From: Spirochaetia bacterium
GTDB taxonomy: Bacteria; Spirochaetota; Spirochaetia; WTKD01; G963693115
Reading direction: 5' to 3'
Assembly: GCA_965226055.1 (NCBI GenBank)
Contig: CBDDCA010000006.1
Location: forward strand, 258,251 to 322,250
Length of the DNA: 64,000 nucleotides
Below, piece after piece: positions 4,044 through 56,137 of the stretch. A model generated the notes under the pieces. It had not been told where the DNA came from. It searched no databases and worked only from the letters and a program-made list of their open reading frames with translations. Every line of letters begins with the position of its first letter. The first letter of the stretch is position 1. Made by a program: the position numbers and the translations under genes.

Positions 4044-4395
4044 GTAGGAATAATGAAAATACTAATAAGTAATTGCATAAAGGTAAAATATTCTAAACGA
4101 TATACAGAAAGAACACATCCCAAGAACCATATACCGAGAGTAATATAGTGCGACATTTCACCAGTAAAATATTGAAAGAGGTAGAGTATCAAGTAACCGA
4201 ATACTTAAAAAGTATAGGAGTAAAAAATGATAGAGAAAAAAGACAGTTTTAGAGATGGAATGAAAAAAGCAGATAAAAGCGAAGACACTAAAGTTATAGA
4301 ACAGATATTAAATGAAGTAGGTAACTATTTAGTACAATTCGTTATGTGAAGTAAGTTGAGAAACAGCAACAAAATGGTATCATATATTTCGAGTA

Positions 4396-8649: not shown

Positions 8650-9642
8650 CTATTTACTTGTGTATTTTATAGAAACCCATATCCGAAACGAACTACTTTT
8701 TCCGTTATATTTACCACTTCCTTGAAAGCTAATTGTATACAATTTCTGTAATAGCTTCCCTTTTGCTTTACCACTTATTGTACCAGAGCTAGTATCAAAA
8801 CCTAATCCTGTCTCATCGTTAATATCAGGAGAAATAGCATAGCGACCAGATATATCACTGGGATTTGCATCAAAACTCACCGATATATCAGTATCTTTGT
8901 CAGCAATAGCCATAATGAACGGTAAGCCATTATACGGTTCTATGGTAACAGCATCATTCCCGCTTGGAGTAAATACATAGCTCCAGCCAGGAAGTTTTAC
9001 ACTCGTAACACCTGAATTATCAAATATACCTTCTACTCTAATAGTATCTTGTATATCCCATTCCTCTAAATCATGCTTAAACCCAGTGGCTCCCTTAAAC
9101 ATATTAATCATATTATTGATAGTATTGTTTACTTTCCACGTTGATATATCTTGATTAAACTGTGTCGCTCCTGCAAACATACTGTTCATATTTTTCACTT
9201 TCTCTACTTTCCACACTGATATGTCTTGATCAAACTGTGTTGCTCCTGCAAACATACCACTCATATCGGTAACATTACTGACATTCCAGCTTGATATATC
9301 TCCATTAAAATGAGTATTTCCCTTAAACATATTGCTCATATCGGTAACATTACTGACATTCCAGCTCGATATATCTCCATTAAAATTAGCTAAATCTCCA
9401 TCACTACTAAATAAACCACTCAAATCTGTCATATTACTTATATCTATATTTGAGAGATCTGTTTCCCATCCATGAAATGAAACTTCACGTTTTATATTAT
9501 TAGCTAGTACTTGTTTATCCGATGGATGATAGACAAAAGACAAGTCTGTAGATTCCTGACTACAACTAAAAAGCAGTAGCAATCCCATTCCTATCATCCA
9601 TAGAAAATAATACTTATATGCTTGAGCATTACATTGTCTCAT
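8650..9642 (-). CDS. DUF285-repeat lipoprotein with a C-terminal He_PIG-like Ig domain. A small paralog of the 2822-aa neighbour
   Basis: Lipobox (LLLFSC). Four repeats of '..F.G...FN.DIS.W.VS.VT.M..MF' (Mycoplasma-type DUF285), then 'SPDINDETGLGFDTSSGTISGKAKG' (the TGxISG signature). Confidence 0.7.
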   Translation of the reverse strand: MRQCNAQAYKYYFLWMIGMGLLLLFSCSQESTDLSFVYHPSDKQVLANNIKREVSFHGWETDLSNIDISNMTDLSGLFSSDGDLANFNGDISSWNVSNVTDMSNMFKGNTHFNGDISSWNVSNVTDMSGMFAGATQFDQDISVWKVEKVKNMNSMFAGATQFNQDISTWKVNNTINNMINMFKGATGFKHDLEEWDIQDTIRVEGIFDNSGVTSVKLPGWSYVFTPSGNDAVTIEPYNGLPFIMAIADKDTDISVSFDANPSDISGRYAISPDINDETGLGFDTSSGTISGKAKGKLLQKLYTISFQGSGKYNGKSSSFRIWVSIKYTSK

Positions 9643-9785
9643 AACTATTACACCAAATATACATTGATTACTACAGCTTGTACTTTAACTATAATTATTT
9701 TTACTAAATCTTACAGAGTAAAAAAACAATATGCTATTATTATACACTATATTAAAAAAATATGCAAAAATAGGTAATAAGTTGC

Positions 9786-9826
9786 CACGAGTTCAAGTAT
9801 TAAATGTGACAAAGGAGCAAAAAAAG
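9786..9826 (+). repeat. Solo IS30-family left-end (IRL) remnant, a degenerate copy
   Basis: 'cacgagttcaagtattaaatgtgacaaaggagcaaaaaaag' matches the left end of the intact IS at 54784 (cacgagttcaaggattaaatgcgacaaaggagcaaaaaaag) with three mismatches. Confidence 0.5.
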
Positions 9827-9930
9827 CGAAAATATAAAAAATACTGAATGTATCTCTTGCCTTTATTTCTTGAATTTGTAGCAGCTATCTTTTCTGTATA
9901 ACTGTGAGTAAGGTATTTTATAAGTGGCAA

Positions 9931-10536
9931 TTATATTCTACTGAATAAGATACTGAACAAAATACCAAATCCTGACAACATGATAGTCATTTGAATTCCA
10001 AAAAACCAGTACATAATAGTACTGTTTGTTTTTATCGATTCTTTCATAGATTTTATTTCTGTTGTCAAATTTTCCCGTACACTATTTATTTCTGTTGTCA
10101 AATTTTCCCGTACACTGCTTATCTCTGTTGTTAAGTTCTCCCGTATGCTGTTTATTTCTGTTGTTAAGTTCTCCCGTACACTGTTTATTTCTGTTGTTAA
10201 TTTCTTCTCTACACTGTTTATTTCTGTTGTCAAATTTTCCCGTACACTGCTTATCTCTGTTGTCAAATTCTCTCGTACGCTGTTTATTTCTGTTGTCAAA
10301 TTTTCCCGTACACTATTTATTTCTATTGTCAAATTTTCCCGTACACTGCTTATCTCTGCTGTTAAGTTCTCCCGTACACTGCTTATCTCTGCTGTTAAGT
10401 TCTCCCGTACGCTGTTTATTTCTGTTGTTAATTTCTTCTCTACACTGTTTATTTTTTCTAATAAAAAATCATATTGTGTAATTGGAGTTGCAAGCATTCC
10501 ATCTTCATTTGTAATTTTCTCTTGTACTGCTCTCAT
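9931..10536 (-). CDS. Bdr-like tail-anchored coiled-coil protein built on 11-aa (33-bp) tandem repeats
   Basis: Central '(T)EI(N/S)SVRENLT' repeated about 12 times and a C-terminal hydrophobic anchor (IMYWFFGIQMTIMLSGFGILFSILF). The architecture resembles Borrelia Bdr/DUF1640-type proteins. Confidence 0.6.
   Translation of the reverse strand: MRAVQEKITNEDGMLATPITQYDFLLEKINSVEKKLTTEINSVRENLTAEISSVRENLTAEISSVRENLTIEINSVRENLTTEINSVRENLTTEISSVRENLTTEINSVEKKLTTEINSVRENLTTEINSIRENLTTEISSVRENLTTEINSVRENLTTEIKSMKESIKTNSTIMYWFFGIQMTIMLSGFGILFSILFSRI
10050..10460 (-). repeat. About 12.5 contiguous 33-bp tandem repeats, coding and in frame
   Basis: Consensus unit 'ttatttctgttgtcaaattttcccgtacactg(c/t)' with alternating variants (gtcaaatt / gttaagttctc). 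Confidence 0.9.
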
Positions 10537-10604
10537 AATTTTATTATATCATATTATTATCATTGAGTAAGTATGTAATCATTTGTAAGGTTGCAAATAA
10601 ACAA

Positions 10605-13600
10605 CTAGCGACAATTCCCCGCTGGAAGACACCATCCAGGCAAGTTTTTTACAGCTGTACCCTTAAACATATCTGTTTTTATCACACTGTTTGCTACATT
10701 CCAGTTACTCAAATTCTGATTAAAAACACTAGCATCAGCAAACATACTGCTCATATCGGTAACATTACTTACATTCCAATTCCCTATATCTTGATTAAAA
10801 ACATCAGCATCATAAAACATATACCTCATATTGGCAACATTACTTACATTCCAATTCCCTATATCCTGATTAAAAGCTTCAGCATCATAAAACATACTGT
10901 TCATATTGGTAACTTTACCTACATTCCATTTTGATATATCTCCATTGAAAAATTCTGTTTGATTAAACATATTGCTCATATCGGTAACTTTACTTACATT
11001 CCATAACGATACATCTCCATTAAAGTATTGTTTATCATAAAATAGCCCTCCCATGTCTGTTATGTTACTTGTATCTATCATGTTTAAGTTAGGGGCAAAT
11101 CCTTGTGCTTTTATCTCTGCTTCTATGGCTTCCTCTAACTTTTTTTTGTTTTGAGGAGTGTACTTGTATTCTATCGTAACTGATATTGTTTTTGATCTAC
11201 TGGCATCAGTATATGTATGTATTGCTTTCCCATCGCTCTTTTTACTGGTAAACTCTATAGTATAGGTCTTTGAAGCTGCTTTGGTAGGAGTACCTGATAT
11301 CTTCCCAGTATCAGCATCAAAGCTCAACCCTGTATCTGCTGTTATATCCGGACTTATACTAAAAATTCCTGCTATAGCGGGTGTTTTAGTAAGTGTTACT
11401 TCTTTATCTTTCGTTAATGGTACTCCTACATATGCCTTTACACTACCTCCTATACTAGCTCTACTTGCACTTATATTAAAATACCATGTAGGGAGTATTA
11501 CTACAGCTGTATGCTCAAACATATTTGTTTTACTCACAGTTTTATCCACATTCCATGTTTCAAGTTCTTTATTAAATACACTTGCTCCCTTAAACATATT
11601 GCTCATATCGGTAACTTTACTGACATTCCACCCTGTTATATCTTGATTAAACTTACTTGCATTAATAAACATACTACGCATATCGGTAACTTTACTGACA
11701 TTCCACCCTGTTATATCTTGATTAAACTCACTTGCCTTAAAAAACATACTGCTCATATTGGTAACGCTACTGACATTCCATCTTGATATATTTCCATTAA
11801 AATTAACTTCACTGGAAAATAGACTACTCATATCTTTTATTTTACTTGTATCTATCATAGTGAGATCGGGGGTATTTCCTTGTACAGTTATCTCTGTATT
11901 TATAGCCTGCTGTAATTCTGCTTTATTATTAGGAATATGCTTATACTCTTTAATAGTAACTAACACTTTTATAGTCCGCCTATCATCAATATATTTATGT
12001 ATGAGTGTTTTATCAGCCTCTTCACTTCTAAACTGTATGGTATACTCAGTCTGTGAAGTTACTGTGGTGGGAGTACCTGATATTATGCCAGTACTAGTAT
12101 CAAAGTTCAACCCTGTATTTGTTGTTATATTTGGACTTATACTAAAACTCCCTGTTATAACGGGCGTTTTGGTAAGTATTATTTTTTGACTGTCTAGGAG
12201 TGATAAATCTCTATAGACACTTATAGTAGTACTATTTGCACTTATACTAAAATACCATGTAGGCAACTTTTTTACTGCTGAAGCAAGAAACATATCTGTT
12301 TTTGTCACACCGCTATCTACATTCCAACTTTCAAGATCTTGGTTAAATGCATTTGCGTTATTAAACATAAAAAACATATTCGTAACACTACTGACATTCC
12401 AATTTGATATATCCCCATTAAATTTTTGTGCTCCTGCAAATATACTGCTCATATTGGTAACTTTACTTACATCCCATTTCGATACATTTCCATTAAAATG
12501 ATCTTTACTGGAAAATATATTACTCATATCTGTTATAGCACTCGTATCTATTATGTTTAGATTAGCGGTATTTCCTTGTGCATTTATCTCATCATCTACA
12601 GCCTTCTGTAATTCTGTTTTATCACTGGGCGTATACTTATACTGACTTATAGTTACATGTATCTCTATTGTCCGATCAGTATATGTATGTATTGTTTTCC
12701 CATTCTTTTCACTGGTAAACTGTATAGTATACTTAGTTTGTGAAGCTAATATAGTGGGAGTACCCGATATTGAGCCAGTGTTAGTATCAAAGTTCAACCC
12801 TGTATTTGTTGTTATATTTGGACTTATACTAAAACTCCCTGTTACATTAGACGTTTTAGTGAGTGTTATTGTTTCAGTGTTACTTAGCGATAAATCTTTG
12901 TATCCAGTTATAGTAGTTCTGTTTGCATTTATACTAAAATACCATGTAGGCAACTTCTTTACTACTGTACTTTCAAACATATTTGTTTTTATTACACTGC
13001 TTTTTACATTCCAGTTTTCCAGATTTGCACTAAACTTTGATGCAAAATTGAACATAGTTTCCATATTTGTAACTTTACTTACAGTCCAATTTTTTATATC
13101 TTGGTTAAAGCTTTGTGCAGATAGAAACATAGCTCTCATATTTATAACTTTACTTACAGTCCAATTTTTTATATCTTGGTTAAAGGCATGTGCTCCAGCA
13201 AATAAACTCTCCATATTTGTAACAGCACTTACATTCCATCCTGATATATCTCCATTAAATTTATTCGCATTCAAAAACATATTGCTCATATTTGTAACTT
13301 TACTTACATTCCATTTTGATATATCTCCATTGAAATTAGCTTTATCCTCAAATAGATTACTCATATCTGTTATAACACTTGTGTCTATTATGTTGAGATT
13401 AGCAGTATCTCCTTGTGCAGCTATCTCATCATCTACAGCTTTCTGTAACTCTGTTTTATTACTAGGAGTATGCTTATAACTTGTGGTAACTGATATTTTT
13501 ATTGTTCTATCAGTATATTTATGTGTCGCTGGATTACCTTTACTATCAGTAAAGCTACTGGTAAACTCTATAGTATAATCAGTCTTTGAAGCTGCTTTAG

Positions 13601-16600
13601 TAGGAGTTCCTGATATTGTGCCAGTGCTAGTATTAAAATCTAACCCTGTATTTACTGTTATATCTGGACTTATACTAAAACTTCCTGTTATATCAGGCGT
13701 TTTGGTAAAAGTTATTTCTTTATTTTTTGCAAGTGGAACATTTACATATGTATTTATACTACGATTACTTGCACTTATATTAAAATACCATGTAGGCAAC
13801 TTTGCTACTGCGGTATTCTTAAACATATCTGTTTTTGTCACACCACTTGCTACATTCCAGCTTTCAAGATCTTTTTCAAATGCATTTGCTCCACTGAGCA
13901 TACTACTCATATTGGTGACAGCATTTACATCCCATTCGGATATATCTCCATTGAAAGTAATATTATCCTTAAATAGATCACTCATATCTGTTATTTTACT
14001 TGTATCTATTATGTTGAGATTAGCTTCGTTTCCTTGTACATTTATCTCTGTAGTTATAGCTTGCTTTAATTCTGTTTTATTATTAGGAGTATGCTTATAC
14101 CTACGTATCTCTACCGATATTTTTATTGTCCTATCAGTATCAATATATTTATGTATTACTGTTCCATCTGTCTTTTTACTTGTAAACTGTATGGTATATT
14201 CAGTCTTTGAGATTGCTGTAAGAGGAGTACCCGATATTTTACCAGTGCTAGGATCAAAATCTAAACCTGTATTTTTTGCTATATCTGGACTAACGCTAAA
14301 ACTTCCTGTTATATTAGGTGTTTTGGTAAGGGTTATTTCTTTATCTGTTGCTAATGGTATGTTTTTATATGCAATTATCTTATTATCACTTGCACTTATG
14401 CTAAAATACCATGTAGGCAACTTTGCTACTGCGGTATTCTTAAATATATCTGTTTTTGTCACAGTCCCATCGCTTGCTACATTCCAATCTTCCAGATCTT
14501 GGTTAAATTTTGTCGCTCCCAAGAACATCTTGCCTATATCGGTAACGCTACTTATATTCCAGCTTGATATATCTTGATTAAACGCTGCCGCTGACGAAAA
14601 CATCTGATGCATATTCGTAACTTTTCCTACCTTCCAATTTGATATATCTTTATTAAAAATGGTTGCTCCCGAAAACATAGCTGTCATATTTGTAACTTTT
14701 CTTACATCCCAGCCCGACATATTGCTATTAAAATTTGCTGCTCCTAAAAACATTCGATTCATATCCGTAACTGCCCCTACATTCCACCCCGATATATCTT
14801 TATTGAAACTGGTTGCTCCCGAAAACATATTCCCCATATCATTCACATTTTGTACCTTCCAATTTGATATATCTTGATTAAAACTTGTCGCATTCCAAAA
14901 CATACCATTCATGTTAGTAACACTTTGTACCTTCCAGTTTGATATATCTTGATTAAAACTACCTGCATAATAAAACATACTGCTCATATCAATAACATTA
15001 CTTACATTCCAACCAGAAATATCCCCATTAAATGCAGCAGCTTGATTAAACATATGACTCATATCAGTAACATTACTTACATCCCACTCAGATATTTTAC
15101 CATTAAAAGTAGTATTACTATTAAATAATCCACTCATATCATCAATCTTACTAGTATCAATTATATTTAAGTCAGCAGTATTTCCTTGTAATCCTATCTC
15201 AGTATTTATATTGTTTATTAATTCTAATTTACCAGTAGGAGTATACTTATGCCCTATAGTAACTGTTATCGTTATTGTCCTATCAGTATAGGCATATATT
15301 GTTTTCCCATTCTTTTCACTGGTAAACTGTATGGTGTAAGGAGTTTTTGAAGCTACCTTTGTAGGAGTACCCGATATTGTCCCAGAGCTAGAATCAAAAC
15401 TCAAGCCTGTATTTGTTGTGATACTTGGACTTATACTAAAACTTCCTGCTATACTAGGTGTTTTGGTAACTTTTATTTCTTCACTTGCTCCTAATTTTAT
15501 ACGTGCTTGCCCTGTCAGAGCAGACTTATTTGCACTTATACTAAAATACCATGTAGGTAACTTTGCTACTGCGGTATTCTTAAACATATCTGTTTTTGTC
15601 ACAGTCCCATCGCTTGCCACCTTCCAGCTTTCAAGATCTTTGTCAAATGCACTTGCTCCTAAAAACATGCTACTCATATCAGCAACCTTGCTTACATTCC
15701 ATCCCGATACATTTTGATTGAAACTTGTTGCTCCTGAAAACATATTACTCATATCGGTAACGCTACTTACATCCCATCCCGATATATCTCCATTGAAATT
15801 AGCTTTATTCTCAAATATATTACTCATATCTGTTATATTACTTGTATTTATTATGTTTAAGTTAGCAGTATTTCCTTGTACTTCTATCTCCTTTTTTATG
15901 TTTTCCAATAACTCTGTTTTGTTGTTAGGAGTATAAAGATAAGTATTTATTGCTACTGATAGAGTGATGGATCTAGTATCGACATAAGTATATGTCGCTG
16001 GATTACCTGAGCTATCAGTAAAGCTACTGGTAAACTGTATGGTGTAAGAAGTTTGTGAAGCTGCCTCGGTAGGAGTACCCGATATTGTGCCAGTTCTAGT
16101 ATCAAAATCTAACCCTGTATTTGCTTTGATATCTGGACTTATACTGAAACTTCCTGCTATAAGGGGTGTCCTTGTCAGTATTATATCTGTTATTGGTACT
16201 TTTACTCCCTCATGTATACTATTGCTGCTTGCGCTTATACTAAAATACCATGTAGGTAATTTTGCTACTGCAGTATTCGTAAACATATTTGTTTTTGTCT
16301 TAAGGCTTGCTATATTCCAGTTTTCAATATCTCCATTAAATTTTATCGCCCCACTCAACATATTTTCCATATCAGTGACTTTACTTACATTCCACTCGGA
16401 TATATTTCCATTGAAAGTAGTGTTATCCTTAAATAGATCACTCATATCTGTTATGTTACTTGTATCTATTATGTTGAGATTAGCAGTATTTCCTTGTGCA
16501 TTTATCTCTGTAGTTATAGCTTGCTTTAATTCTGCTATATTATTGGGAGTATGCTTATATTTATGTATCTCTACTGATATTGTTATTGTTCTATCAGTAT

Positions 16601-19073
16601 AGGTATGTGTTGCTAAAGCACCTGTACTACCAGTAAAGCTACTGGTAAACTGTATGGTGTAAGAAGTTTGTGAAACTGCTTTGGTAGGAGTGCCTGATAT
16701 TGTCCCAGTGCTAGTATTAAAACTCAACCCTGTATTTGCTGTTATATCTGGACTAATACTAAAATTTCCTGCTATATCAGGCGTTTTGCTAAGGGTTATT
16801 TCTTCATTTTTTGCTAGCGGTATTCCTCTATATACATCTATACTAGCACTATTTGACTTTATGCTAAAATACCATGTAGGTAATTTTGCTACTGCGGTAT
16901 TCTTAAATATATCTGTTTTTGTCACAGCGATTGCTACATTCCAGCCTTCAAGATCTTGTGTAAACTTAGAAGCACCAGAAAACATGCTACTCATATTGGT
17001 AACCTTGCTTACATTCCATCCCGACACATTTTGATTGAAACTTGTTGCTCCTAAAAACATACTGCTCATATCGGCAACTTTACTTACATTCCATCCCGAT
17101 ACATTTTGATTGAAACTTGTTGCTCCTAAAAACATACTGCTCATATCGGTAACTTTACTTACATTCCATTTCGATATGTCTCCATTAAAACTTGTTGCTC
17201 CTGAAAACATACTGCTCATATCGGTAACTTTACTTACATTCCATTTCGATATATCTCCATTGAAAGTAGTGTTATCCTTAAATAGCCTACTCATATCTGT
17301 TATAAGACTCGTATTTATTATGTTTAGATTAGCAGTATTTCCTTGCAATCCTACCTCTGTTTTTATAGCTTCCAATAATTCTGCTTTATTTTTTGGCTTA
17401 TACTCTATAGTGAGCAATATTTCTATTGTCCTATCAGTATCAGTATAGGTATGTATTTCTGTCCTATCAGAGGAGGTACTTGTAAATGTTATAATATACT
17501 CAGTCTCTGAGGCTACCTTTGTAGGAGTACCTGATATTGTGCCAGTACTAGTATCAAAACTCAACCCTATACTCGTTATATCTGGCTTTATACCAAATTT
17601 TCCTGTTATATCAGGCGTTTTGCTAAGAGTTATTTTTTCATTATCTGCTAGTGATACCCCTTTATATACAGTGAGCTCATCAACATTAGCACTTATGCTA
17701 AAATACCATGTAGGCAATTTTGCTACTGCGGTATTTGTAAACATATCTTTTTTTGTCACAGTGCTTGCTACATTCCAGCCTTCAAGATCTTTATCAAATG
17801 CACTTGCTCCTGAAAACATACCATCCATATCTGTAATATTACTTACCTTCCACTTTGATATGTCTCCATTGAAACTTGTTGCTCCTGCAAACATATTACT
17901 CATATCGGTAACATTGCTTACATCCCACAATGATATATCTCTATTAAAGGTAGTGTCATCCTTAAATAGATCATGCATATCTTTTACAGCACTTGTATTT
18001 ATATAGTTAAAATTATCTACATCAGTATTTTTAATTGCTTCTATTAATTCGTTACGTGTTTTTACTATAGCAGTAAACACCGATACATATATAGAGAACT
18101 GGCTAGACTTTCCTAAGTAACTTCCATCCCCTGTAAAACGAATTGTATATTTTCTTCGTATACCATTTTCTTTATCCTTCAATAACCTTATTGCAGTGCC
18201 ATATATTTCTCCATTATTGTCCTTCATCTCCAATCCTGTATCTTCCGTAAGAGTTGTCGTTTTTCCATCAGTACTATTAAATTCAATACTCCATGTACCA
18301 GTAATTCCTGGAGGGCTTGTTGCAATATTGATTGGCATTAAAGGAACATTCAAGCTCGACTTGATTAACTGTTCATTATCATACCTATCTGTGATAGAGT
18401 TTCCATCACGCACAAGAGTAAATACATAATGCCAACTAGGAATACTTGTTGCAGGTACATTAGCTCCCTTAAATATATCTTGTATATTTACTGAATCTGC
18501 TACCTGCCATTTCTCTAAATCATACTGAAACACTGTTGCTTTATTAAACATGTTACTCATATCGGTAACCTTGCTCACATTCCAGCCTGATATATCTTGA
18601 TTAAAACTTGCTGCGGCTTCAAACATGTTACTCATATCGGTAACCTTGCTCACATTCCAGCCTGATATATTTTGATTAAAACTCGTTGCTCCCTTAAACA
18701 GATTACTCATATTAGTAACATTACTTACATTCCAGCCTGATATATTTCCATTAAAGGTAGTATTTCCTTCAAACATACTGCTCATATCAGTAATATTGCT
18801 TACATCCCAACTTGATATATCACCTGAAAAATTGGAAAATTCACCATCACCTTTGAATAAGCCGCTTATATCTTTTACTTTACTTGTATCTATAGTAGAG
18901 AGATCTGCTGCATTTCCGCGGGAGGCAATTTCTCGCTTAATGTTTTCAATAAGCGATTCTCTACTATCAGGAGAGTAAATAAAGTCTAAACTTAAAGATT
19001 TTTCTGGATCACAACCAGATACCAAAAAAGCGAAACATAAAAATAGCCAAAATATAAAAAATTGATACTTCAT
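10605..19073 (-). CDS. Giant 2822-aa modular surface lipoprotein: about 10 modules, each a DUF285 repeat block plus a He_PIG-type Ig-like domain
   Basis: Lipobox (FLVSGC). Each module reads '..NTANLNIIDTS.ITDMS.LF', then 3-8 repeats of 'F.GATSFNQDIS.WNVS.VTDMS.MF', then 'AVAKLPTWYFSISA...ITLTKTP.I(A/T)GSFSISPDIT.NTGLSFDTSTGTISGTPT...YTIQFTS'. Confidence 0.85.
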   Translation of the reverse strand: MKYQFFIFWLFLCFAFLVSGCDPEKSLSLDFIYSPDSRESLIENIKREIASRGNAADLSTIDTSKVKDISGLFKGDGEFSNFSGDISSWDVSNITDMSSMFEGNTTFNGNISGWNVSNVTNMSNLFKGATSFNQNISGWNVSKVTDMSNMFEAAASFNQDISGWNVSKVTDMSNMFNKATVFQYDLEKWQVADSVNIQDIFKGANVPATSIPSWHYVFTLVRDGNSITDRYDNEQLIKSSLNVPLMPINIATSPPGITGTWSIEFNSTDGKTTTLTEDTGLEMKDNNGEIYGTAIRLLKDKENGIRRKYTIRFTGDGSYLGKSSQFSIYVSVFTAIVKTRNELIEAIKNTDVDNFNYINTSAVKDMHDLFKDDTTFNRDISLWDVSNVTDMSNMFAGATSFNGDISKWKVSNITDMDGMFSGASAFDKDLEGWNVASTVTKKDMFTNTAVAKLPTWYFSISANVDELTVYKGVSLADNEKITLSKTPDITGKFGIKPDITSIGLSFDTSTGTISGTPTKVASETEYIITFTSTSSDRTEIHTYTDTDRTIEILLTIEYKPKNKAELLEAIKTEVGLQGNTANLNIINTSLITDMSRLFKDNTTFNGDISKWNVSKVTDMSSMFSGATSFNGDISKWNVSKVTDMSSMFLGATSFNQNVSGWNVSKVADMSSMFLGATSFNQNVSGWNVSKVTNMSSMFSGASKFTQDLEGWNVAIAVTKTDIFKNTAVAKLPTWYFSIKSNSASIDVYRGIPLAKNEEITLSKTPDIAGNFSISPDITANTGLSFNTSTGTISGTPTKAVSQTSYTIQFTSSFTGSTGALATHTYTDRTITISVEIHKYKHTPNNIAELKQAITTEINAQGNTANLNIIDTSNITDMSDLFKDNTTFNGNISEWNVSKVTDMENMLSGAIKFNGDIENWNIASLKTKTNMFTNTAVAKLPTWYFSISASSNSIHEGVKVPITDIILTRTPLIAGSFSISPDIKANTGLDFDTRTGTISGTPTEAASQTSYTIQFTSSFTDSSGNPATYTYVDTRSITLSVAINTYLYTPNNKTELLENIKKEIEVQGNTANLNIINTSNITDMSNIFENKANFNGDISGWDVSSVTDMSNMFSGATSFNQNVSGWNVSKVADMSSMFLGASAFDKDLESWKVASDGTVTKTDMFKNTAVAKLPTWYFSISANKSALTGQARIKLGASEEIKVTKTPSIAGSFSISPSITTNTGLSFDSSSGTISGTPTKVASKTPYTIQFTSEKNGKTIYAYTDRTITITVTIGHKYTPTGKLELINNINTEIGLQGNTADLNIIDTSKIDDMSGLFNSNTTFNGKISEWDVSNVTDMSHMFNQAAAFNGDISGWNVSNVIDMSSMFYYAGSFNQDISNWKVQSVTNMNGMFWNATSFNQDISNWKVQNVNDMGNMFSGATSFNKDISGWNVGAVTDMNRMFLGAANFNSNMSGWDVRKVTNMTAMFSGATIFNKDISNWKVGKVTNMHQMFSSAAAFNQDISSWNISSVTDIGKMFLGATKFNQDLEDWNVASDGTVTKTDIFKNTAVAKLPTWYFSISASDNKIIAYKNIPLATDKEITLTKTPNITGSFSVSPDIAKNTGLDFDPSTGKISGTPLTAISKTEYTIQFTSKKTDGTVIHKYIDTDRTIKISVEIRRYKHTPNNKTELKQAITTEINVQGNEANLNIIDTSKITDMSDLFKDNITFNGDISEWDVNAVTNMSSMLSGANAFEKDLESWNVASGVTKTDMFKNTAVAKLPTWYFNISASNRSINTYVNVPLAKNKEITFTKTPDITGSFSISPDITVNTGLDFNTSTGTISGTPTKAASKTDYTIEFTSSFTDSKGNPATHKYTDRTIKISVTTSYKHTPSNKTELQKAVDDEIAAQGDTANLNIIDTSVITDMSNLFEDKANFNGDISKWNVSKVTNMSNMFLNANKFNGDISGWNVSAVTNMESLFAGAHAFNQDIKNWTVSKVINMRAMFLSAQSFNQDIKNWTVSKVTNMETMFNFASKFSANLENWNVKSSVIKTNMFESTVVKKLPTWYFSINANRTTITGYKDLSLSNTETITLTKTSNVTGSFSISPNITTNTGLNFDTNTGSISGTPTILASQTKYTIQFTSEKNGKTIHTYTDRTIEIHVTISQYKYTPSDKTELQKAVDDEINAQGNTANLNIIDTSAITDMSNIFSSKDHFNGNVSKWDVSKVTNMSSIFAGAQKFNGDISNWNVSSVTNMFFMFNNANAFNQDLESWNVDSGVTKTDMFLASAVKKLPTWYFSISANSTTISVYRDLSLLDSQKIILTKTPVITGSFSISPNITTNTGLNFDTSTGIISGTPTTVTSQTEYTIQFRSEEADKTLIHKYIDDRRTIKVLVTIKEYKHIPNNKAELQQAINTEITVQGNTPDLTMIDTSKIKDMSSLFSSEVNFNGNISRWNVSSVTNMSSMFFKASEFNQDITGWNVSKVTDMRSMFINASKFNQDITGWNVSKVTDMSNMFKGASVFNKELETWNVDKTVSKTNMFEHTAVVILPTWYFNISASRASIGGSVKAYVGVPLTKDKEVTLTKTPAIAGIFSISPDITADTGLSFDADTGKISGTPTKAASKTYTIEFTSKKSDGKAIHTYTDASRSKTISVTIEYKYTPQNKKKLEEAIEAEIKAQGFAPNLNMIDTSNITDMGGLFYDKQYFNGDVSLWNVSKVTDMSNMFNQTEFFNGDISKWNVGKVTNMNSMFYDAEAFNQDIGNWNVSNVANMRYMFYDADVFNQDIGNWNVSNVTDMSSMFADASVFNQNLSNWNVANSVIKTDMFKGTAVKNLPGWCLPAGNCR

Positions 19074-26797: not shown

Positions 26798-26866
26798 AAA
26801 TTACTCCTTTAATTATTATTAGTATATCATATATGTACATATTATATTTTTATAACAAGAAAATAT

Positions 26867-26906
26867 CACGAGTTCAAGGATTAAATGCGACAAAGGAGCA
26901 AGAAAC
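26867..26906 (+). repeat. Solo IS30-family left-end (IRL) copy. It heads a ~410-bp cassette duplicated at 54278-54700
   Basis: 'cacgagttcaaggattaaatgcgacaaaggagcaagaaa' is followed by sequence that is more than 95% identical to 54325-54700. Confidence 0.55.
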
Positions 26907-27047
26907 ATAAAACAAGCATATTTTTTATTAGCTACTACATATAGTGTATATTTAGTATATAATTTTCAATTTAAGCACTAGAGAAATTTGCTTTATTTTT
27001 ATATTAATGCTATACTAAATGCAGAATAATAAGAGAACAATAACATT

Positions 27048-27281
27048 ATGAGTGTACAAGCAAAAACTGATACAAAAGAAACTACTTTAATTTTAAATAA
27101 TACCGATAAGGAAAATTTGGAAAGATGTTTCTCGGAATGGAAATTCAAAGATTATCAAAGCCTTATGAGGTTCGTATCATCTATTTTAATTGAGAGCGAA
27201 GATAAAATAACAATAGGCATTAAGAAAAGTGGAGTGCTAAAAGAATTTTCACCAGCAGATCATTTACTAAAAGATTCATAA
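27048..27281 (+). CDS. Small hypothetical protein (77 aa) carried on the duplicated IRL cassette. Its paralog is at 54474-54731
   Basis: An ORF is conserved in both cassette copies (MSVQ(A/V)KTDTKETTLILNNTDKENLERCFSEWKFKDYQSLMRFVSSILIESEDKITIGIKKSGVLKEFSPADHL). I recognise no known domain in it. Confidence 0.45.
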   Translation: MSVQAKTDTKETTLILNNTDKENLERCFSEWKFKDYQSLMRFVSSILIESEDKITIGIKKSGVLKEFSPADHLLKDS

Positions 27282-27626
27282 ATGGCAGATAATCAAAACA
27301 ATAAACCTAATGCTGAGTATAGCATTGAACATCAATTAAAGGAGTTAAAGCAAGATATAATTACCCCTCATAAATTTGCAAAGATATTTTCTGATGCTAT
27401 GCGTGAATCAAAAGGTTTAGATGAAAGTATACAAAAATGCTTAAAAGAGCTTATAGCTAAAGATGATGATATTAAAAAGGAAATTTTTGAGAGAATAAAA
27501 GATTACATCAAAGAAGAAAGAAAGTTATTTAATACATCAGTATGGAAAACATCTAAAGACATTATTCTTTTAATTGTAGGTGCTGGAATATCGTTTTTAT
27601 TTACATGGCTAGCAAAGTTTCTTTAA
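27282..27626 (+). CDS. Hypothetical coiled-coil protein with a C-terminal transmembrane anchor (114 aa)
   Basis: Its start abuts the stop of the 77-aa ORF (taaATG). A charged helical N-terminal region is followed by 'IILLIVGAGISFLFTWLAKFL'. Confidence 0.45.
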   Translation: MADNQNNKPNAEYSIEHQLKELKQDIITPHKFAKIFSDAMRESKGLDESIQKCLKELIAKDDDIKKEIFERIKDYIKEERKLFNTSVWKTSKDIILLIVGAGISFLFTWLAKFL

Positions 27627-27673
27627 GTAGCTAAAAAGAAGCTATACATTTGATACCGCACTTGATACCACGA

Positions 27674-28360
27674 CTACTCTCTCTGTAAGTGCTCTATAAT
27701 CATTTCTTTTGCTTCTGAAATCTCTAATAACGATGTTATAAAATAGTGCATATTCTCTTTTTGATGGAATTTTCTCTCATTGACTATCTCATCATAGTTA
27801 ATACACAGTAAACTACACAGCTCTTCTCCTGTATATGCCTCATACTCATTTATCTTATTCTTGAAGCCTGTCACTATCTGTTTTTTGTCTGTTACATTAA
27901 AAGAACACATCACAGGAGTAACGGTAAACTGTATTTCTCGTGATATAAAATTAATATATTCGTGTAAATGCCGTCTCTCTCCCGCTGATTTTTTAGTATC
28001 AAATTGATCTCCATCTTTTACTTCTATGACATAACAATTCTGCACATTCTGTTTTGTTTTTTGGAATGCTACAAAATCAGGCTCAAAAGATTTCTGAGCT
28101 ATTAAGGATTTTTTTATTTGTTGTTTGTTCGCTACCCATATTCCTTCTGGATAGGAATCTGACTTTAGATAAGAGTCAATATCTGTTATTTGATTACAAC
28201 GCTCCCATATAATCTTTTCTAGTTCATTCCCTGCTGATATTACTGTAGCTTGTAACTTACTTATCAAGTTACCTAGCTTTTCATTCCCTACTATTCTTGT
28301 ATAACCACTTGGAGACTGTTTCGTATCTCTTCCTTTTGCTTCACTGAGAAGAGCATTCAT
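27674..28360 (-). CDS. Putative Type II restriction endonuclease (PD-(D/E)xK fold)
   Basis: '..[26 protein letters not shown]' fits a PD...(D/E)xK motif. The start overlaps the upstream methyltransferase stop by 4 nt. I see no other recognisable family. Confidence 0.55.
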
Positions 28361-29070
28361 GTTTCTATTATATCACATCCTAAAAAATTTCTGTTTGATT
28401 TTTTACATGCTTCAAATACAGAAAAACTACCGCTTGCAGGGTCTATTACTATATCATCCTCATTTGTTACTGCTTCAATCAATGCTTTTTGTAGCTCTAT
28501 TGGCTTGTTATGAGCATGATTTCTCTCTACTTTCTCATCCCATACATCTCTTATAGTATGAACAGTCCATACTCCCTTTGCTCTTTTAGGAGCTTTCTGA
28601 ATAACATATACATATTCTGATACTCGCCTTGTTCTATACCCCATCCCTATTCTTTGTTTATTCCATGTTATAAGATCCACTATTTCTAAATGAGTTTCTA
28701 CTAACCACTTACTAATACCATTACACAAAATAAATTTGTCTACCCATAAAAAACAATGCCCCATAGGATGCAATACTCTATCTATCTCTTTTATAAACTT
28801 GTCTATTATTTTATCTGTCATCTGTGGCAAAATAGCTCTCGCTTTTTGCCGCTCCCCTTCATTTCCATATCCTTGCTTATCTAAGATTCCTCTATACTGA
28901 GGATCAAAAAATACTACTGGGAATGTATTACTATCCAACTTAGAAAGAAGATCTAAGCCATCCATCTGCATTTTTGTGTTTAGTGTTAGTCCTTTCGCTA
29001 ATGTTATATCTCCTTGCTTAATATCTCGCTTACTCGAATATACATTATTGGGATTATACTGTGCTTTCAT
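28357..29070 (-). CDS. DNA methyltransferase, beta class (N6-adenine/N4-cytosine; N6_N4_Mtase family)
   Basis: Motif IV 'VVFFDPQY' near the N-terminus and motif I '[15 protein letters not shown]' near the C-terminus. The IV-then-I order marks a beta-class amino-MTase. Confidence 0.75.
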
Positions 29071-30632
29071 GATAAGAGAGAATAGTAGCTTTGTAACACT
29101 GGATGAGGATCTCCTTTCAACAAAGTATGTGTTAGTACTTTTCCTAACTGCACCCCTTCTTGATCAAAAGAATTGATGTTCCATAAGAACCCTTGAAACA
29201 TTACTTTATTTTCAAAGTGTGAAAGTAACGCACCAAGTGTGTACGGAGTTGCCATATCAGCATACAATACACTGGAAGGACGATTTCCTATAAACAGCTT
29301 ATGTGCATTATCATTATCCTTTCCCATTGAAAACGCCACTATCTGTGCTGCTAAGTTTGCCAACAGCTTTTGTTGACTTGTAGAGCCTTCATAGGATATA
29401 TCATGTTGCATCTGAGAATGAGTAAACGCTATAAACTGTAATGGTACAATATCAGTTCCCTGATGTAATAGCTGATAAAAACTATGCTGTCCGTTTGTCC
29501 CTGGTTCTCCAAACACTACCGGTCCAGTAGTATAGTCAATACGTTCCCCAAAACGATTTACTTGTTTTCCATTACTCTCCATATCAAGCTGTTGTAAATG
29601 AGCAGGAAAACGAGATAACGCCTGACTATACGGAAGCACTGCAGTGTAAGGATACTTAAGAACATTACGTTCGTACACACCAATAAGAGCATCTATCATT
29701 GCAGGATTTTGCATAACAGGAGCAGTATACGCTATCTTATCACTCTCATGTGTACCACGTAAAAACTCCCGTGTTATATCGCTTCCATAGGCAAGATTTA
29801 AGAGACATACTCCCACCGCACTACTTACCGAATAGCGTCCACCAATATAATCATCAATAAAAAAAGAATCGAGGTAATCTTTTGATTGTGCTAAAGGACT
29901 TGTTTCAGAGGTTACACATACCATATGCTTTTTGGGATGTTTAATACCTGCTTGTTGTAACCATTCTAACGCAAACTGAGCATTGGTAAGCGTTTCTTGT
30001 GTTGTCCCACTCTTTGAAACTAAAATAAACAATGTTGTTTCTGGATTAGCAAACAATAATTGTTCTCCCGTATCATCAGGGTCAACATTACTTATAAACC
30101 CTACTTTTCGTATAGGAATATCTTTTCTTTTTGCGTATACATAGGAACGCAAAGCAAGATATACAGCACGAGGGCCAAGATCTGAACCTCCTATTCCTAT
30201 TTGAATAAAAGTATCAAAAGGTTTTCCTGTTTCTCCTACTATTTCTTGGGCATGTACTTTTTTTGCAAAATTTTCACAAAGGCGTATCTGTTCGGCATAA
30301 AATTCATTATAATTTCTCCCTTCTTTTTGGACTACAGTGTCTAACTGTCCACGAAGAGCATGGTGTAATACCATACGCTGTTCGCCAGTGTTTACTATTT
30401 CCCCATTTACAAGCTGAGAAAACATTTCTTTGAGTTGTTGTTCTTCTGACAGAGCATAGAGTTGCTGAAGTATCTCATCGTTTACTCTTTTTGCAGAAAA
30501 ATTATAGCGGTATCCAGCTCCTGCTACATCATATTGTTGAATACGTTTTGCATCAAATTGTTCATAACTAAACAATGGCATATCACTTAACTTCTTAAAA
30601 TTAGTACAATCATTTAAGTTCTTATTACTCAT
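29067..30632 (-). CDS. pgi: Glucose-6-phosphate isomerase
   Basis: A 521-aa PGI-family protein (..[11 protein letters not shown].., ..ESNGK..) with typical length. Its stop overlaps the start of the MTase gene. Confidence 0.85.
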
Positions 30633-42087: not shown

Positions 42088-43044
42088 TCATATTGGTATC
42101 TTAATCCATGCTTGAGGCACATCTGTATCATTGATACTGTATCCTTCTTTTTCTTTAGAACTAATATACGGTAAAATTACTATCTTATCTTTATTTGTAT
42201 TAAGCCATGCTCCCCACCAACTAAATGTACTACTTGCAATTATTTGATGCTTACATTTACTTAGCAAATATAAATCTTCATGTCCTTTTGAAAGTGAATT
42301 TCCGTCCATAATAGTAAAGGATATATGAGAGAAACGATGAGCTTGCCTTTTAACCCATGCAGGATCATCACTAAAGAAAAAATAATGTGGATGCTGTAAT
42401 TTTTTCTGCATAATATGTATTGCAGCAAGATAATAATCTATACCTACCAAATTGCCTATAGTAACAACATCTGTCCTACGAATATGAACTCCCACTGATT
42501 GCTTTTTACTCAATATGATGTTTTCGTATTTTAAAGAATAGCTGCCAAGTGGATTACGAAGGGTACATTGCTGAAGAATATCACTTCGATACTCTTCAAA
42601 AAATGTATGACATTGAAACCAACCATCAAGGTACACATTATTCCCCAGACGAAATAAAGATTGTACATACTCATCTGGATACCCATATTTAACATGATGA
42701 TTATTAAACGTTTTCAAACAATATATCTTTGTAAGATACCGTTTAAGAAATAATGCTACTTTCATAGGAACATTCATTTTCCTTATAAGAGATAATAAAG
42801 CATGCACTCTCCTATAATATTTGTAAGAAGGTATTAGTAAGCAACCATATTGAGCAATAATATTATATTCATCAAGAAAAAGAATACGAGCTTTTATACT
42901 GTTACCAGCAGAATCTTTCACAAAATAATCATAATCTAAAAAATCAAGAACAACATAGGTATTATTTTTTCTTGCTAAGGCATAGGCTGTAGCGTATTGA
43001 AATAACTGATTACCAAGTCTCCCTTGTACTTTAACAGCTATCAT
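42088..43044 (-). CDS. Glycosyltransferase family 11 (alpha-1,2-fucosyltransferase-like)
   Basis: N-terminal 'MIAVKVQGRLGNQLFQYATAYALA' is the GT11 hallmark (FutC/WbsJ-like). Its start lies inside the 3' end of the upstream HtrL-like gene. Confidence 0.75.
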   Translation of the reverse strand: MIAVKVQGRLGNQLFQYATAYALARKNNTYVVLDFLDYDYFVKDSAGNSIKARILFLDEYNIIAQYGCLLIPSYKYYRRVHALLSLIRKMNVPMKVALFLKRYLTKIYCLKTFNNHHVKYGYPDEYVQSLFRLGNNVYLDGWFQCHTFFEEYRSDILQQCTLRNPLGSYSLKYENIILSKKQSVGVHIRRTDVVTIGNLVGIDYYLAAIHIMQKKLQHPHYFFFSDDPAWVKRQAHRFSHISFTIMDGNSLSKGHEDLYLLSKCKHQIIASSTFSWWGAWLNTNKDKIVILPYISSKEKEGYSINDTDVPQAWIKIPI

Positions 43045-43990
43045 ATCTTATACCATATTTATCCCTTCCATTGAGGACGTACCCCCCCCCCCCCAATTTC
43101 CACAGCATGCCTTTTACAATATTCTTAAAAGATTGATATAACGAAGGTTTCATTTTTTTCTGTAATAATTTCTCTGGTAAAAAATATTGATGAAAATAAA
43201 ACCATACATCAAAAGGATGAGGAGGATCAATCATATGAAAATATTCGGGATATCCAATGGCAAGACGAGCATATATATTTTGTTCTACTCCAATAAATGT
43301 ACCATGAGAAGACATGTTATCCTTCAATGTATAGTAAAGATTATGTATTTTTAAGAGAATAGAGCTATGAATAAGAAATAAGCCTCCAACATGTTCTCTT
43401 GTTCGCAAGGTCAATGTAGCTATATTTTCTTTCTCCTTCGCATATTGTTGAACATCAAACCTTTGTTCTGTTTTTGTCATTACTACTTTATGGGGAGACA
43501 TAGTAGTTACTTTTTCTACATCAGGCCACTGTCTAATTTCTCTTGGTTTCAAATCGTAATCATACCTACGCTTTCTTCCTCTAAACGCTCCAATATCCAT
43601 CCACATAAACCACTGCGACCGAAACACATTTAACTCATACGCTTCTTTTACAAAATGTAATTTTTCGTTCCATATAATATACAGCTCAGGATCATGTATA
43701 TCTTTTTCTTTATTTTTTGCATGATGTTCTTGATACAATGCATAATGAGCATACTCATGAAGCTGATGAAATTCTTTTATAATAACAACAGTATTTTCTT
43801 GATACTTTTTCCTTAATCGTAAAAAATAGGGAGCATGCTCTTTATCAGTAAATATAACGAGCGGGAGTTTCATATTACAGAGAAAATTTTTTATCCACTG
43901 TTTATACATATCATCACTATGTTTTGATTTCTTAAGACGATAATATGCAGTCACTATTGTGAGACTATTCTTAACAATACTTTCCTCCAA
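43031..43990 (-). CDS. HtrL/YibB-family putative glycosyltransferase, copy 1. It has a poly-G tract near its 3' end
   Basis: 'SLTIVTAYYRLKKS...' has HtrL_YibB-like N-terminal topology. It is about 96% identical to the 44115-45119 protein up to '...MLWKLGGGG', after which the tails differ. Confidence 0.6.
   Translation of the reverse strand: MEESIVKNSLTIVTAYYRLKKSKHSDDMYKQWIKNFLCNMKLPLVIFTDKEHAPYFLRLRKKYQENTVVIIKEFHQLHEYAHYALYQEHHAKNKEKDIHDPELYIIWNEKLHFVKEAYELNVFRSQWFMWMDIGAFRGRKRRYDYDLKPREIRQWPDVEKVTTMSPHKVVMTKTEQRFDVQQYAKEKENIATLTLRTREHVGGLFLIHSSILLKIHNLYYTLKDNMSSHGTFIGVEQNIYARLAIGYPEYFHMIDPPHPFDVWFYFHQYFLPEKLLQKKMKPSLYQSFKNIVKGMLWKLGGGGYVLNGRDKYGIRYDSC
43082..43094 (-). repeat. Homopolymeric tract C13 on the + strand (G13 on the coding strand). 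It lies ~17 codons before the stop of HtrL copy 1
   Basis: Counted directly: 43081 'a', then 13 c, then 'aatttcc'. Confidence 0.95.
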
Positions 43991-44046: not shown

Positions 44047-44085
44047 TCACGAGTTCAAGGAGTAACTGCGACAAAGGAGCAAAAA
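44047..44085 (+). repeat. Solo IS30-family left-end (IRL) remnant at the junction of the tandem HtrL duplication
   Basis: 'cacgagttcaaggagtaactgcgacaaaggagcaaaaaa' matches the IS30 left end at 54784 with four mismatches. Confidence 0.5.
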
Positions 44086-44114
44086 ACATACTGTTACCTA
44101 ATTTATGTGATCTA

Positions 44115-45119
44115 TCAAAAATAAGACAAGATGCCATTAGTATACAACAAAAATTCTATTTTATAAGCAAACTCTCTTTCCTTCCTTATTATTATTCCAT
44201 TGGGGTGTACCCCCCCCCCCCCCAATTTCCACAGCATGCCTTTTACAATATTCTTAAAAGATTGATACAACGAAGGCTTTATTTTTTTCTGTAATAATTT
44301 CTCTGGTAAAAAATATTGATGAAAATAAAACCATACATCAAAAGCATGAGAAGGATCAATCATATGAAAATATTCAGGATATCCAATGGCAAGACGAGCA
44401 TATATATTTTGGTCTACTCCAATAAATGTACCATGAGAAAACATATTATCCTTCAATGTATAATAAAGATTATGTATTTTTAAGAGAATAGAGCTATGAA
44501 TAAGAAATAAGCCTCCAACATGTTCTCTTGTTCGCAAGGTCAATGTAGCTATATTTTCTTTCTCTTTCGCATATTGTTGAACATCAAACTCTTCCTCTGT
44601 TTTTATCATTACTGCTTTATGGGGAGACATAGTAGTTACTTTTTCTACATCAGGCCACTGTCTAATTTCTCTTGGTTTCAAATCGTAATCATACCTACGC
44701 TTTCTTCCTCTAAACGCTCCAATATCCATCCACATAAACCACTGCGACCGAAACACATTTAACTCATACGCTTCTTTTACAAAATGTAATTTTTCGTTCC
44801 ATATAATATACAGCTCAGGATCATGTATATCTTTTTGTATATCTTTTGCATGATGTTCTTGATACAATGCATAATGAGCATACTCATGAAGCTGATGAAA
44901 TTCTTTTATAATAACAACAGTATTTTCTTGATACTTTTTCCTTAATCGTAAAAAATAGGGAGCATGCTCTTTATCAGTAAATATAACGAGCGGGAGTTTC
45001 ATATTACAGAGAAAATTTTTTATCCACTGTTTATACATATCATCACTATGTTTTGATTTCTTAAGACGATAATATGCAGTCACTATTGTGAGACTATTCT
45101 TAGCAATACTTTCCTCCAA
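44115..45119 (-). CDS. HtrL/YibB-family putative glycosyltransferase, copy 2. It has a poly-G tract near its 3' end
   Basis: Tandem paralog of 43031-43990. It is identical over most of its length and diverges at only a few residues (e.g. KDIQKD vs KNKEKD; MIKTEEEFD vs MTKTEQRFD). Confidence 0.6.
   Translation of the reverse strand: MEESIAKNSLTIVTAYYRLKKSKHSDDMYKQWIKNFLCNMKLPLVIFTDKEHAPYFLRLRKKYQENTVVIIKEFHQLHEYAHYALYQEHHAKDIQKDIHDPELYIIWNEKLHFVKEAYELNVFRSQWFMWMDIGAFRGRKRRYDYDLKPREIRQWPDVEKVTTMSPHKAVMIKTEEEFDVQQYAKEKENIATLTLRTREHVGGLFLIHSSILLKIHNLYYTLKDNMFSHGTFIGVDQNIYARLAIGYPEYFHMIDPSHAFDVWFYFHQYFLPEKLLQKKIKPSLYQSFKNIVKGMLWKLGGGGVHPNGIIIRKEREFAYKIEFLLYTNGILSYF
44210..44223 (-). repeat. Homopolymeric tract C14 on the + strand (G14 on the coding strand) in HtrL copy 2
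   Basis: Counted directly: '...tggggtgta' then 14 c (44210-44223) then 'aatttcc'. This is one nucleotide longer than the tract in copy 1. Confidence 0.95.
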
Positions 45120-54195: not shown

Positions 54196-54283
54196 ACTTA
54201 CTCCTATTGATTAAAATATATTACATGGTATTTTACATTATATTAAAACAATGGTATTGTTGCAGTAACTTATTATTGGGGAT

Positions 54284-54324
54284 CACGAGTTCAAGGATTA
54301 AATGCGACAAAGGAGCAAAAAAAG
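54284..54324 (+). repeat. Solo IS30-family left-end copy heading the second duplicated cassette
   Basis: The 58 bp from 54281 are identical to 54781-54838, the left end of the intact IS. Confidence 0.6.
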
Positions 54325-54473
54325 TAAGAAAAATAAAACAAAGCATATTTTTATTAGCTACTACATATAGTGTATATTTAGTATATAATTTTCAATTTAA
54401 GCACTAGAGAAATTTGCTTTATTTTTATATTAATGTTATACTAAATGCAGAATAATAAGAGAACAATAACATT

Positions 54474-54731: not shown

Positions 54732-54785
54732 TGATAATTATATCACCGATCAACAGTTAAAGGAATTTAATTATGTCACCGATCA

Positions 54786-55864: not shown

Positions 55865-56137
55865 CTTAGTACAGAAAATAATAAGGAAATGATAATTACT
55901 CTTATGGCTGATAAATTTGAAATTGCTAAAGACGCAATGACTTATCGTCTGGGATTACAAAATAAATAGCTTTTTTATGATAGCCTAAAAAACTCTCTGT
56001 AATTGCCCATCATAGCAATACTACAAAAATTTTAATTTTTTACTATAATACTAGTGTATGATGATAACATACAATAATGAAACAAAAGGAGTATTTCTAT
56101 GAATGAAAATAGAGAGCTACAAAGTATGAAAAAAATC

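Follow-up and report, generated by a model that had tools for sequence, protein, structure and literature searches.

Two copies of an IS30-end cassette in a Spirochaetia genome: possible remains of a composite transposon carrying an uncharacterized gene pair

The window (the whole 64,000-nt stretch of Spirochaetia DNA analyzed here) contains a cassette in two co-linear copies, at 26864-27268 and 54281-54694, which were compared by direct reading of the sequences and by pairwise alignment. Copy 1, all on the + strand, begins with a stub of the left end of an IS30-family insertion sequence (IS; 26867-26912), followed by an AT-rich non-IS leader delimited by reading the sequence (26913-27047); by ORF77 (27048-27281), which belongs to an uncharacterized family of 75-90-aa proteins; and by ORF114 (27282-27626), whose ATG comes directly after the ORF77 stop codon. 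The ORF114 product has a helical N-terminal part with the motif P.KFA..F..A and a C-terminal transmembrane helix. An earlier note on this DNA recognized the small ORF but not ORF114, which also belongs to the unit; with it, copy 1 is 760 bp long and has two genes. Copy 2, on the same strand, has a stub (54284-54341), a leader near-identical by alignment to that of copy 1 (54342-54473), a paralog of ORF77 (54474-54731), and a diverged and truncated homolog of ORF114 (54700-54801). The last of these retains 27 native codons (54700-54783), after which its frame runs into the left end of an intact IS and reaches a stop codon at 54799-54801. The small ORF is conserved in both copies, as the note had it, but its length of 77 aa holds for copy 1 only: because the stop codon has been lost, the copy 2 ORF is 85 aa long, with the last conserved motif (PADHL) kept.

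The alignment confirms the note's main observation, a ~410-bp cassette present twice 27 kb apart, and also its description of both copies as starting at the IS30 left end and continuing into common non-IS sequence. The copies are co-linear from 26864 and 54281, both beginning exactly at the IS tip (CACGAG...). The first 35 bp from the tip, 26867-26901 in copy 1 and 54284-54318 in copy 2, are the same at 35/35 positions and, in copy 1 as well as copy 2, identical to the IS; leader and ORF, 26916-27268 and 54343-54694, are the same at 347/353. The similarity extends beyond the inverted repeat, then, which was what the note had proposed to settle by alignment. In between is a subterminal A-rich patch where the copies are set apart by one 9-bp indel, a single substitution and, in runs of A or T, two indels of one base each; the copy 1 version (26902-26912, + strand) is of the type found in the IS variant of a related metagenome-assembled genome (MAG) described below. 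The junction of IS and leader is the same in both copies, ATAAAAC followed directly by AAGCATATTTTT. Their left flanks are unrelated. The note's figure of ~58 bp of IS left end in each copy is correct for copy 2, where 50 bp agree exactly with the intact IS next to it and ~58 bp in all, but too high for copy 1, where the overlap is 35 bp exact, or ~46 bp with one indel allowed. In each copy, 35 bp or more agree exactly with the left end of the IS, a length that takes in the whole inverted repeat. When the leader was compared with other IS variants at their left ends, no homology was found past about position 58.

The copy 1 leader includes TTGCTT (26988-26993) and, after a 17-nt spacer, TGcTATACT (27008-27016), which to the eye looks like an extended -10 and agrees with TGaTATACT/TGaTATAAT motifs found upstream of host genes. 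The leader may therefore be a candidate for carrying an extended -10 promoter on the strength of this reading by eye, although a consensus promoter scan did not rise above chance. In the protein collection searched, ORF77 occurs in two versions only, the 77-aa and the 85-aa, both on one 957-kb contig. No further copies of the cassette were found in JGI metagenomes or in the related MAG loci, and metagenome scans gave 0 matches to the leader and 0 to the IS-end motif.

The intact IS at copy 2 (54784-55864, + strand; 1,081 bp) was delimited by its repeats and by a transposase model. Its left inverted repeat is at 54784-54809 (+) and its right at 55839-55864, matching the left at 21/26 positions; the transposase ORF (54892-55857, +; 321 aa) terminates inside the right repeat. 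The transposase scores 236 bits against NCBIfam transpos_IS30 (cut-off 80) and has the Pfam domains HTH_38 (1.4e-14) and rve: it is a DDE transposase with N-terminal HTH and rve core, as in the IS30 family. The overall build is likewise that of IS30-type elements, with terminal inverted repeats (about 20-30 bp in the family), a length in the ~1.0-1.25 kb range, and one element-spanning ORF. A 2-3-bp target-site duplication, the remaining family character, is absent, the flanks being ...CCGAT on the left and CTTAG... on the right. Since the left flank is the cassette's truncated second gene, with homology between the cassettes stopping at the IS junction (54783/54784), and the right flank is the 3' end of an unrelated ORF, the absent duplication is taken as reflecting a later adjacent deletion or rearrangement at copy 2, and as no argument against family membership. 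The IS is multi-copy in the genome, with apparently intact transposase genes of two subtypes 14-15 residues apart. Within the window, a 35-nt motif from its left end occurs five times on the + strand (0 expected): in the intact IS, in the two cassette copies, and as solo stubs at 9786 and 44048. The one inverted copy of the IS-end motif, at 55839-55858, is the IS right end.

Directly to the right of the IS, at 55886-55969, comes the 3' portion of an ORF that is truncated (ending in ...LMADKFEIAKDAMTYRLGLQNK and a stop codon) and has no Pfam match. By eye it resembles the C-terminus of ImmA/IrrE-type prophage peptidases, which suggests that the copy 2 site may once have been part of a larger phage-derived island.

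The stub at 54284 and the IS, which is in direct orientation and whose right repeat ends at 55864, bracket a 1,581-bp unit of stub, cargo, and IS, and copy 2 looks like a single-ended composite transposon. Target-site duplications were sought by reading the sequence around copy 1, the intact IS, and the 1,581-bp unit, and none was seen. Nor was a right-end repeat found at copy 1: a search of the window for a 20-mer core, with up to three mismatches, returned the right end of the intact IS as the only one. A candidate right tip downstream of ORF114, TTGATACCGCACTT (27648-27661), was rejected, with a local score of 12 against a null mean of 12.5 ± 2.4; 66% of random windows score as high, and with the flank included 7% do as well.

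These searches bear most directly on the note's proposal of a MITE-like unit. Such a unit, whether called a MITE or a mobile insertion cassette, would be a non-autonomous but active derivative of IS30 in which the small ORF lies between two repeats, with no transposase of its own and mobilized in trans. The left boundary of the cassette, at the exact IS tip and with the left repeat intact, is as this would require, and the genome has multi-copy, apparently intact transposase genes. The right-end repeat is absent, however, the best candidate being no better than two-thirds of random windows; there are two copies only in the assembly, neither with a target-site duplication; and a 760-bp copy with two genes is unlike a MITE. 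Measured at either 410 or 760 bp, the cassette lacks the repeats at both ends, the duplication, and the several dispersed copies that define these elements. The MITE or mobile insertion cassette reading is largely refuted, and we consider an active derivative of this sort very improbable.

At the other end of the cassette, identity between the copies breaks at 27268, 14 nt before the ORF114 ATG, dropping sharply to 61 matches in 102 alignment columns. This ~60% stretch is itself significant homology (z = 4.3), its score being reached by 0/2000 shuffles and 0 of ~2900 genomic windows. The copies are thus mosaic, ~98% identical in stub, leader, and ORF77 but ~60% in the second gene, and the subterminal patches of their two stubs resemble different IS variants, each like one of the two genomic IS subtypes. 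The sharp break and the differing patches together show later recombination or conversion.

A break at essentially the same junction separates two viral contigs encoding homologs of ORF77, L030 and L031. These are ~95% identical through a resolvase gene, the ORF77 homolog, and the first ~15 nt of gene 2; past that point gene 2 gives way completely to an unrelated ORF of 273 aa, and the identity returns with the next gene. On this comparison, gene 2 behaves as an exchangeable cassette. The regions concerned are L030 4001-4544 and L031 4001-5051, and also L029 and L033; the ORF77 homologs are ~97% identical, the alternatives for gene 2 are a 104-aa tail-anchored partner and the 273-aa protein, with about the first five codons in common, and the gene in which identity resumes is VapD-like.

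The main rival to a transposon origin for the two cassettes is ectopic gene conversion. Two paralogous loci, old and already diverged, with a stub and a module apiece, would have been partly homogenized by a tract running from the IS repeat, as the left-hand homology, to the 3' end of ORF77; no unit would have moved recently, and the stub would serve only as portable homology. The drop from 98 to 60% at 27268 with homology continuing beyond it is the kind of boundary a conversion tract leaves, stub patches matching different IS subtypes would be expected with a crossover in or near the repeat, and the swap of gene 2 at the same junction in the viral contigs fits as well. Against this, 35 bp is very short for left-hand homology, the neutral leader must have stayed alignable in both old copies, and one junction could not have come to lie at two sites bounded by the IS tip without some prior event of transposase type. 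We regard ectopic conversion as possible but doubtful.

The IS ends are not confined to the cassettes. There are four solo left ends in the window, two of them the cassette stubs. The others are a 41-bp stub at 9786-9826 (+), 95% identical to the IS end, which has no cassette after it and lies 144 bp upstream of a minus-strand gene (8650-9642); and a 39-bp stub at 44048-44086 (+), also 95% identical, with tandem paralogous minus-strand genes on either side. A scan of 185,579 species representatives for the IS-end pattern gave one genome, the Spirochaetia MAG OZ244590.1, which is related but not identical to the genome of the window. It has about seventeen solo ends, ~eleven left and six right. 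Solo stubs range from 22 to 75 bp, and no opposite-end partner was found for any of them in the window or in OZ244590.1. Where they lie between tandem genes, the stop codon of the upstream gene is ~20-100 bp past the inner edge of the stub, so close that the missing DNA should amount to about one IS length.

The position of these stubs raises the possibility that they are kept for a role in cis, as an outward -35 or a transposase-binding operator for the adjacent gene; the cassette stubs would then act on the divergent SBP and fabV genes and not in mobility. A gene start 47-144 bp away is faced by the tip in 14 of ~18 solo ends, by 7 to 1 in the tandem-gene contexts. MAG stubs are 92-100% identical to the window's IS ends, and in one comparison the stubs of the two genomes are 95-100% identical to the active IS, whereas the IS bodies, degenerate in OZ244590.1, are only ~89-91% identical. 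Both repeats contain outward -35-like hexamers (TTGAAC/TTGAAT, 6 nt from the tip), and one hybrid promoter site, at 26869-26841, scores 10/12. But promoter-like sites do not exceed shuffle expectation, no -10 is found consistently at the correct distance past the tips, and the flanks have their own extended -10 30-50 nt further on. The orientation bias (p about 0.04, one-sided, on small numbers) could come from a cis-acting role, but is also expected from selection against deletions that reach promoters. A cis-acting role would leave the cargo duplication unexplained; we think it improbable.

A further suggestion of the note was that the stub marks a preferred target next to an IS30 repeat. 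On such a view the stub would be a landing pad and the nearby intact IS its consequence. Insertion next to an IS30 repeat is known behavior of these elements, and at two MAG loci (L014 and L016) the right-end tip of this IS is met directly by another element of the IS30 family. In the window, however, 500 bp separate the intact IS from the stub, the IS sits within a cargo gene instead of abutting the repeat, and the three other stubs have no IS nearby; the proposal did not hold up, and it has very little probability as an account of the cassette.

Several other arrangements in the MAG deserve mention. The second IS30-family element, whose transposase is ~30% identical, adjoins the right end of the first IS or of its stub: it lies against the tip at ~5560-5745 of L014 and ~5870-6880 of L016, while at 2680-3725 of L011 it lies within the first IS, a short way in from the right repeat. 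Placement at these three loci looks like insertion targeted at IS repeats. The stub at L013 is chimeric, with the left end of the first IS (positions 1-58) joined to subterminal sequence of the second. A GmrSD-type restriction gene at L012 is preceded by a solo left-end stub and, immediately behind the stub, a (GCTAT)n microsatellite (~4100-4180).

In the window, the note had placed the cassette at the border of horizontally acquired material, which is loosely true only. Copy 1 has an SBP gene on one side and the restriction-modification genes on the other, and copy 2 is flanked by fabV and the DUF285 gene. The type II restriction-modification genes convergent to copy 1 (27674-29070) are real: a 228-aa endonuclease (PADLOC REase_II, 2.5e-52) and, within the same interval, a 237-aa N6/N4 methyltransferase. 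The methyltransferase ORF, though, overlaps the stop codon of pgi (29067-30632) by 4 bp. Elsewhere there are three long homopolymer tracts, C13 at 43082-43094, C14 at 44210-44223, and G13 at 56137-56149. The two C tracts are inside tandem paralogous minus-strand genes (43031-43990 and 44115-45119) that share 300 nt at 95% identity, and the G13 tract is at the 5' end of a gene for a 1,571-aa DUF285/fibronectin-type-III lipoprotein-like protein; all three are candidate phase-variation switches. Very long minus-strand gene(s) at 9000-19000 and 60446-60670 are built of nested repeats of 75 nt (25 aa) and ~620-850 nt, with similar 75-nt repeats in the DUF285 protein, and these long repeat genes encode surface proteins of the BspA/DUF285 leucine-rich-repeat type.

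The cargo was followed through its protein products. Word-indexed searches with ORF77 and ORF114 returned the queries themselves only; the ORF77 family emerged from an exhaustive HMMER search (E <= 1e-3), with 65 full-length representatives of 75-90 aa, and a profile search extended it to 121 clusters, none with a Pfam domain and every one annotated as hypothetical. The family motif is DNGD..W.FKD.QSLLRF..S.L..EDK...PA..LL. An AlphaFold model of ORF77 from the 65-sequence alignment (pLDDT 88.6) runs from two strands through two helices to two further strands, with no structural neighbor in PDB or BFVD. A ribbon-helix-helix fold, guessed at from the sequence, was rejected on this model. No meaningful relatives of ORF77 or ORF114 were found in Pfam, NCBIfam, PADLOC, PHROGs, or PDB sequences, and no fold match in PDB or BFVD; in particular, neither protein showed homology to toxin, antitoxin, or defense domains. 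Eleven IMG/VR viral contigs encode members of the ORF77 family, while tblastn with two members against a GenBank phage collection and PLSDB plasmids gave no match.

In 10 of 11 distinct contexts inspected, the gene directly behind the ORF77 homolog encodes an ORF114-like protein of 102-120 aa, with the motif P.KFA..F..AA..QK.ID and a transmembrane helix at the extreme C-terminus (loci L018-20, L022, L023, L025, L027, L029/30, L032, and L034-36). ORF77 and ORF114 are a recurring pair of small, co-oriented genes on mobile elements, and three kinds of context can be distinguished. Some pairs are in phage-like regions with Cro, SSB, YqaJ, and terminase genes, and a cI-like repressor gene immediately upstream (directly so in L018-L020); others are on plasmid-like or phage-like islands with resolvase, VapBC, HicAB, Doc, HigB, and VapD genes; and still others are isolated islets between housekeeping genes, twice adjoining other transposase genes. 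The islet neighbors in these two cases are an IS1-like transposase gene and what appears by eye to be an IS1595-like remnant; no convincing inverted repeats were found around the IS1-like gene and module in L025. The IS30 repeat was present in 0 of five homolog loci scanned (L018-L022). The note had allowed that the small ORF might prove to be a chromosomal gene unrelated to the repeat, and this is partly the case: it belongs to a widespread family that at the scanned loci is found apart from IS30 ends. Together with the range of phage, plasmid, and islet contexts, this argues that the ORF77-ORF114 module is independent mobile cargo and not an IS-specific ORF.

The nature of the pair (a small cytoplasmic protein and a tail-anchored membrane protein), its neighborhood of repressors and toxin-antitoxin genes, and the exchangeability of gene 2 hint at a defense- or addiction-type module in which the membrane protein would be the effector; the suggestion is a weak one drawn from context. 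A more elaborate version would make this a new family of defense or addiction modules with an exchangeable effector, a tail-anchored membrane protein here and an unrelated 273-aa protein in some phage contigs, that in the present genome is still mobilizable by the IS30 transposase by way of the stub and the downstream IS. We think this rather unlikely as a whole.

All in all, the likeliest identity for the cassette is that of a decayed IS-borne transposon, not of a novel type of mobile element. Our preferred account, to which we give about an even chance, is that it is a decayed IS30-family composite (single-ended) transposon that carried an accessory pair of phage or plasmid type and was later made mosaic by recombination. 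The leader-ORF77-ORF114 module would first have come to lie adjacent to, or between, copies of the IS; with one IS/leader junction in both copies, the fusion should have arisen once. By analogy with a better-known case discussed below, the upstream IS may then have been lost through an IS-length "abortive transposition" deletion, leaving a 46-58-bp stub with a complete repeat. This intact outer repeat could have let the transposase move stub, cargo, and downstream IS to a second site: that the second site was reached with the IS tip as boundary implies transposase action on an intact left repeat. The tip boundary and common junction can be read directly from the sequence; the move itself we infer from them. 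The downstream IS would later have vanished at copy 1, and at copy 2, where it persists, an adjacent deletion or rearrangement may have taken most of gene 2 along with the original right flank. What can be seen there is the lack of a target-site duplication and the unrelated truncated ORFs on either side of the IS. Recombination would at some point have made the pair mosaic, the pattern now present.

This decayed-transposon account is not free of difficulties. The unit is at two sites with a common junction and IS-tip ends, but the right ends differ or are lost: there is no trace of one at copy 1, and there are no duplications at either site. As the intact IS is inside gene 2 and not after it, an extra deletion must be assumed; gene 2, at 60% identity, requires further recombination or an old duplication; and since the stub patches resemble two IS variants, conversion by resident IS copies has to be assumed as well.

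The cassette itself poses no challenge to current understanding. What it newly exposes is a widespread, wholly uncharacterized two-gene module, lacking both a Pfam family and a structural neighbor, whose company of prophage repressor regions, toxin-antitoxin clusters, and recombinases makes it a reasonable candidate for a phage-defense or addiction system. In some respects the pair recalls the lambda cI-rexA-rexB operon and type II toxin-antitoxin modules: it consists of two small overlapping genes, for one cytoplasmic and one membrane protein. It is also found directly downstream of a cI-like repressor gene (L018-L020), in the vicinity of VapBC, HicAB, HigB, Doc, and VapD genes, and adjoining recombinases and transposases. 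It shows, however, no resemblance in sequence or structure to Rex, to Sie, or to catalogued toxins, antitoxins, and defense proteins.

Among mobile elements, mobile insertion cassettes of the MIC231 type and MITEs are similar in having an IS-derived end, with passenger genes in place of the transposase, but differ from the present cassette in their second inverted repeat and target-site duplication, and in the number of copies, here two only. A second parallel is the truncated ISAba125 upstream of blaNDM, a short terminal fragment of an IS30-family element that travels with its passenger gene into new contexts and supplies the -35 of the cargo promoter. The likeness is in an IS30-family end fragment fused upstream of a passenger gene; in our cassette, by contrast, the stub tip points away from the cargo, which has its own extended -10-like motif 30 nt before the ATG. 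The linkage of ISAba125 and blaNDM is noted in PMC12445084.

The closest comparison is with Tn6330 (ISApl1-mcr-1-pap2-ISApl1), an IS30-family composite transposon whose decay products have been described in detail (Snesrud et al. 2018, PMC5821093). Most of the deletions are about one IS length and were attributed to abortive copy-out transposition, and variants keeping 42 or 90 bp of ISApl1, the whole right repeat included, were found at several sites with target-site duplications, a recurrence suggesting retained mobility (PMC5821093). Copy 2 has a Tn6330-like architecture, an intact IS and a direct-orientation terminal remnant with a complete outer repeat around the cargo. The resemblance goes further: the IS family is the same, the cargo lies between an intact IS and a stub of a few tens of bp, IS-length deletions would account for the stubs, stub units occur at more than one site, and decay would fix the cargo in place. 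The solo stubs of the window and the MAG would also seem, by analogy, to resemble the 42-90-bp ISApl1 remnants. The differences are that Tn6330 derivatives keep the right end of the downstream IS whereas the cassette keeps the outer left end of the upstream one, copy 2 being the mirror image; that the cassette has no visible duplications, mosaic copies, and a deletion joint that cannot be reconstructed here; and that its cargo is an uncharacterized phage-type pair instead of a resistance gene. It would be a second, non-clinical example of IS30-family composite transposons decaying to "stub plus cargo," as documented earlier for mcr-1, and suggests that this mode of decay is general and able to litter a genome with solo IS ends.
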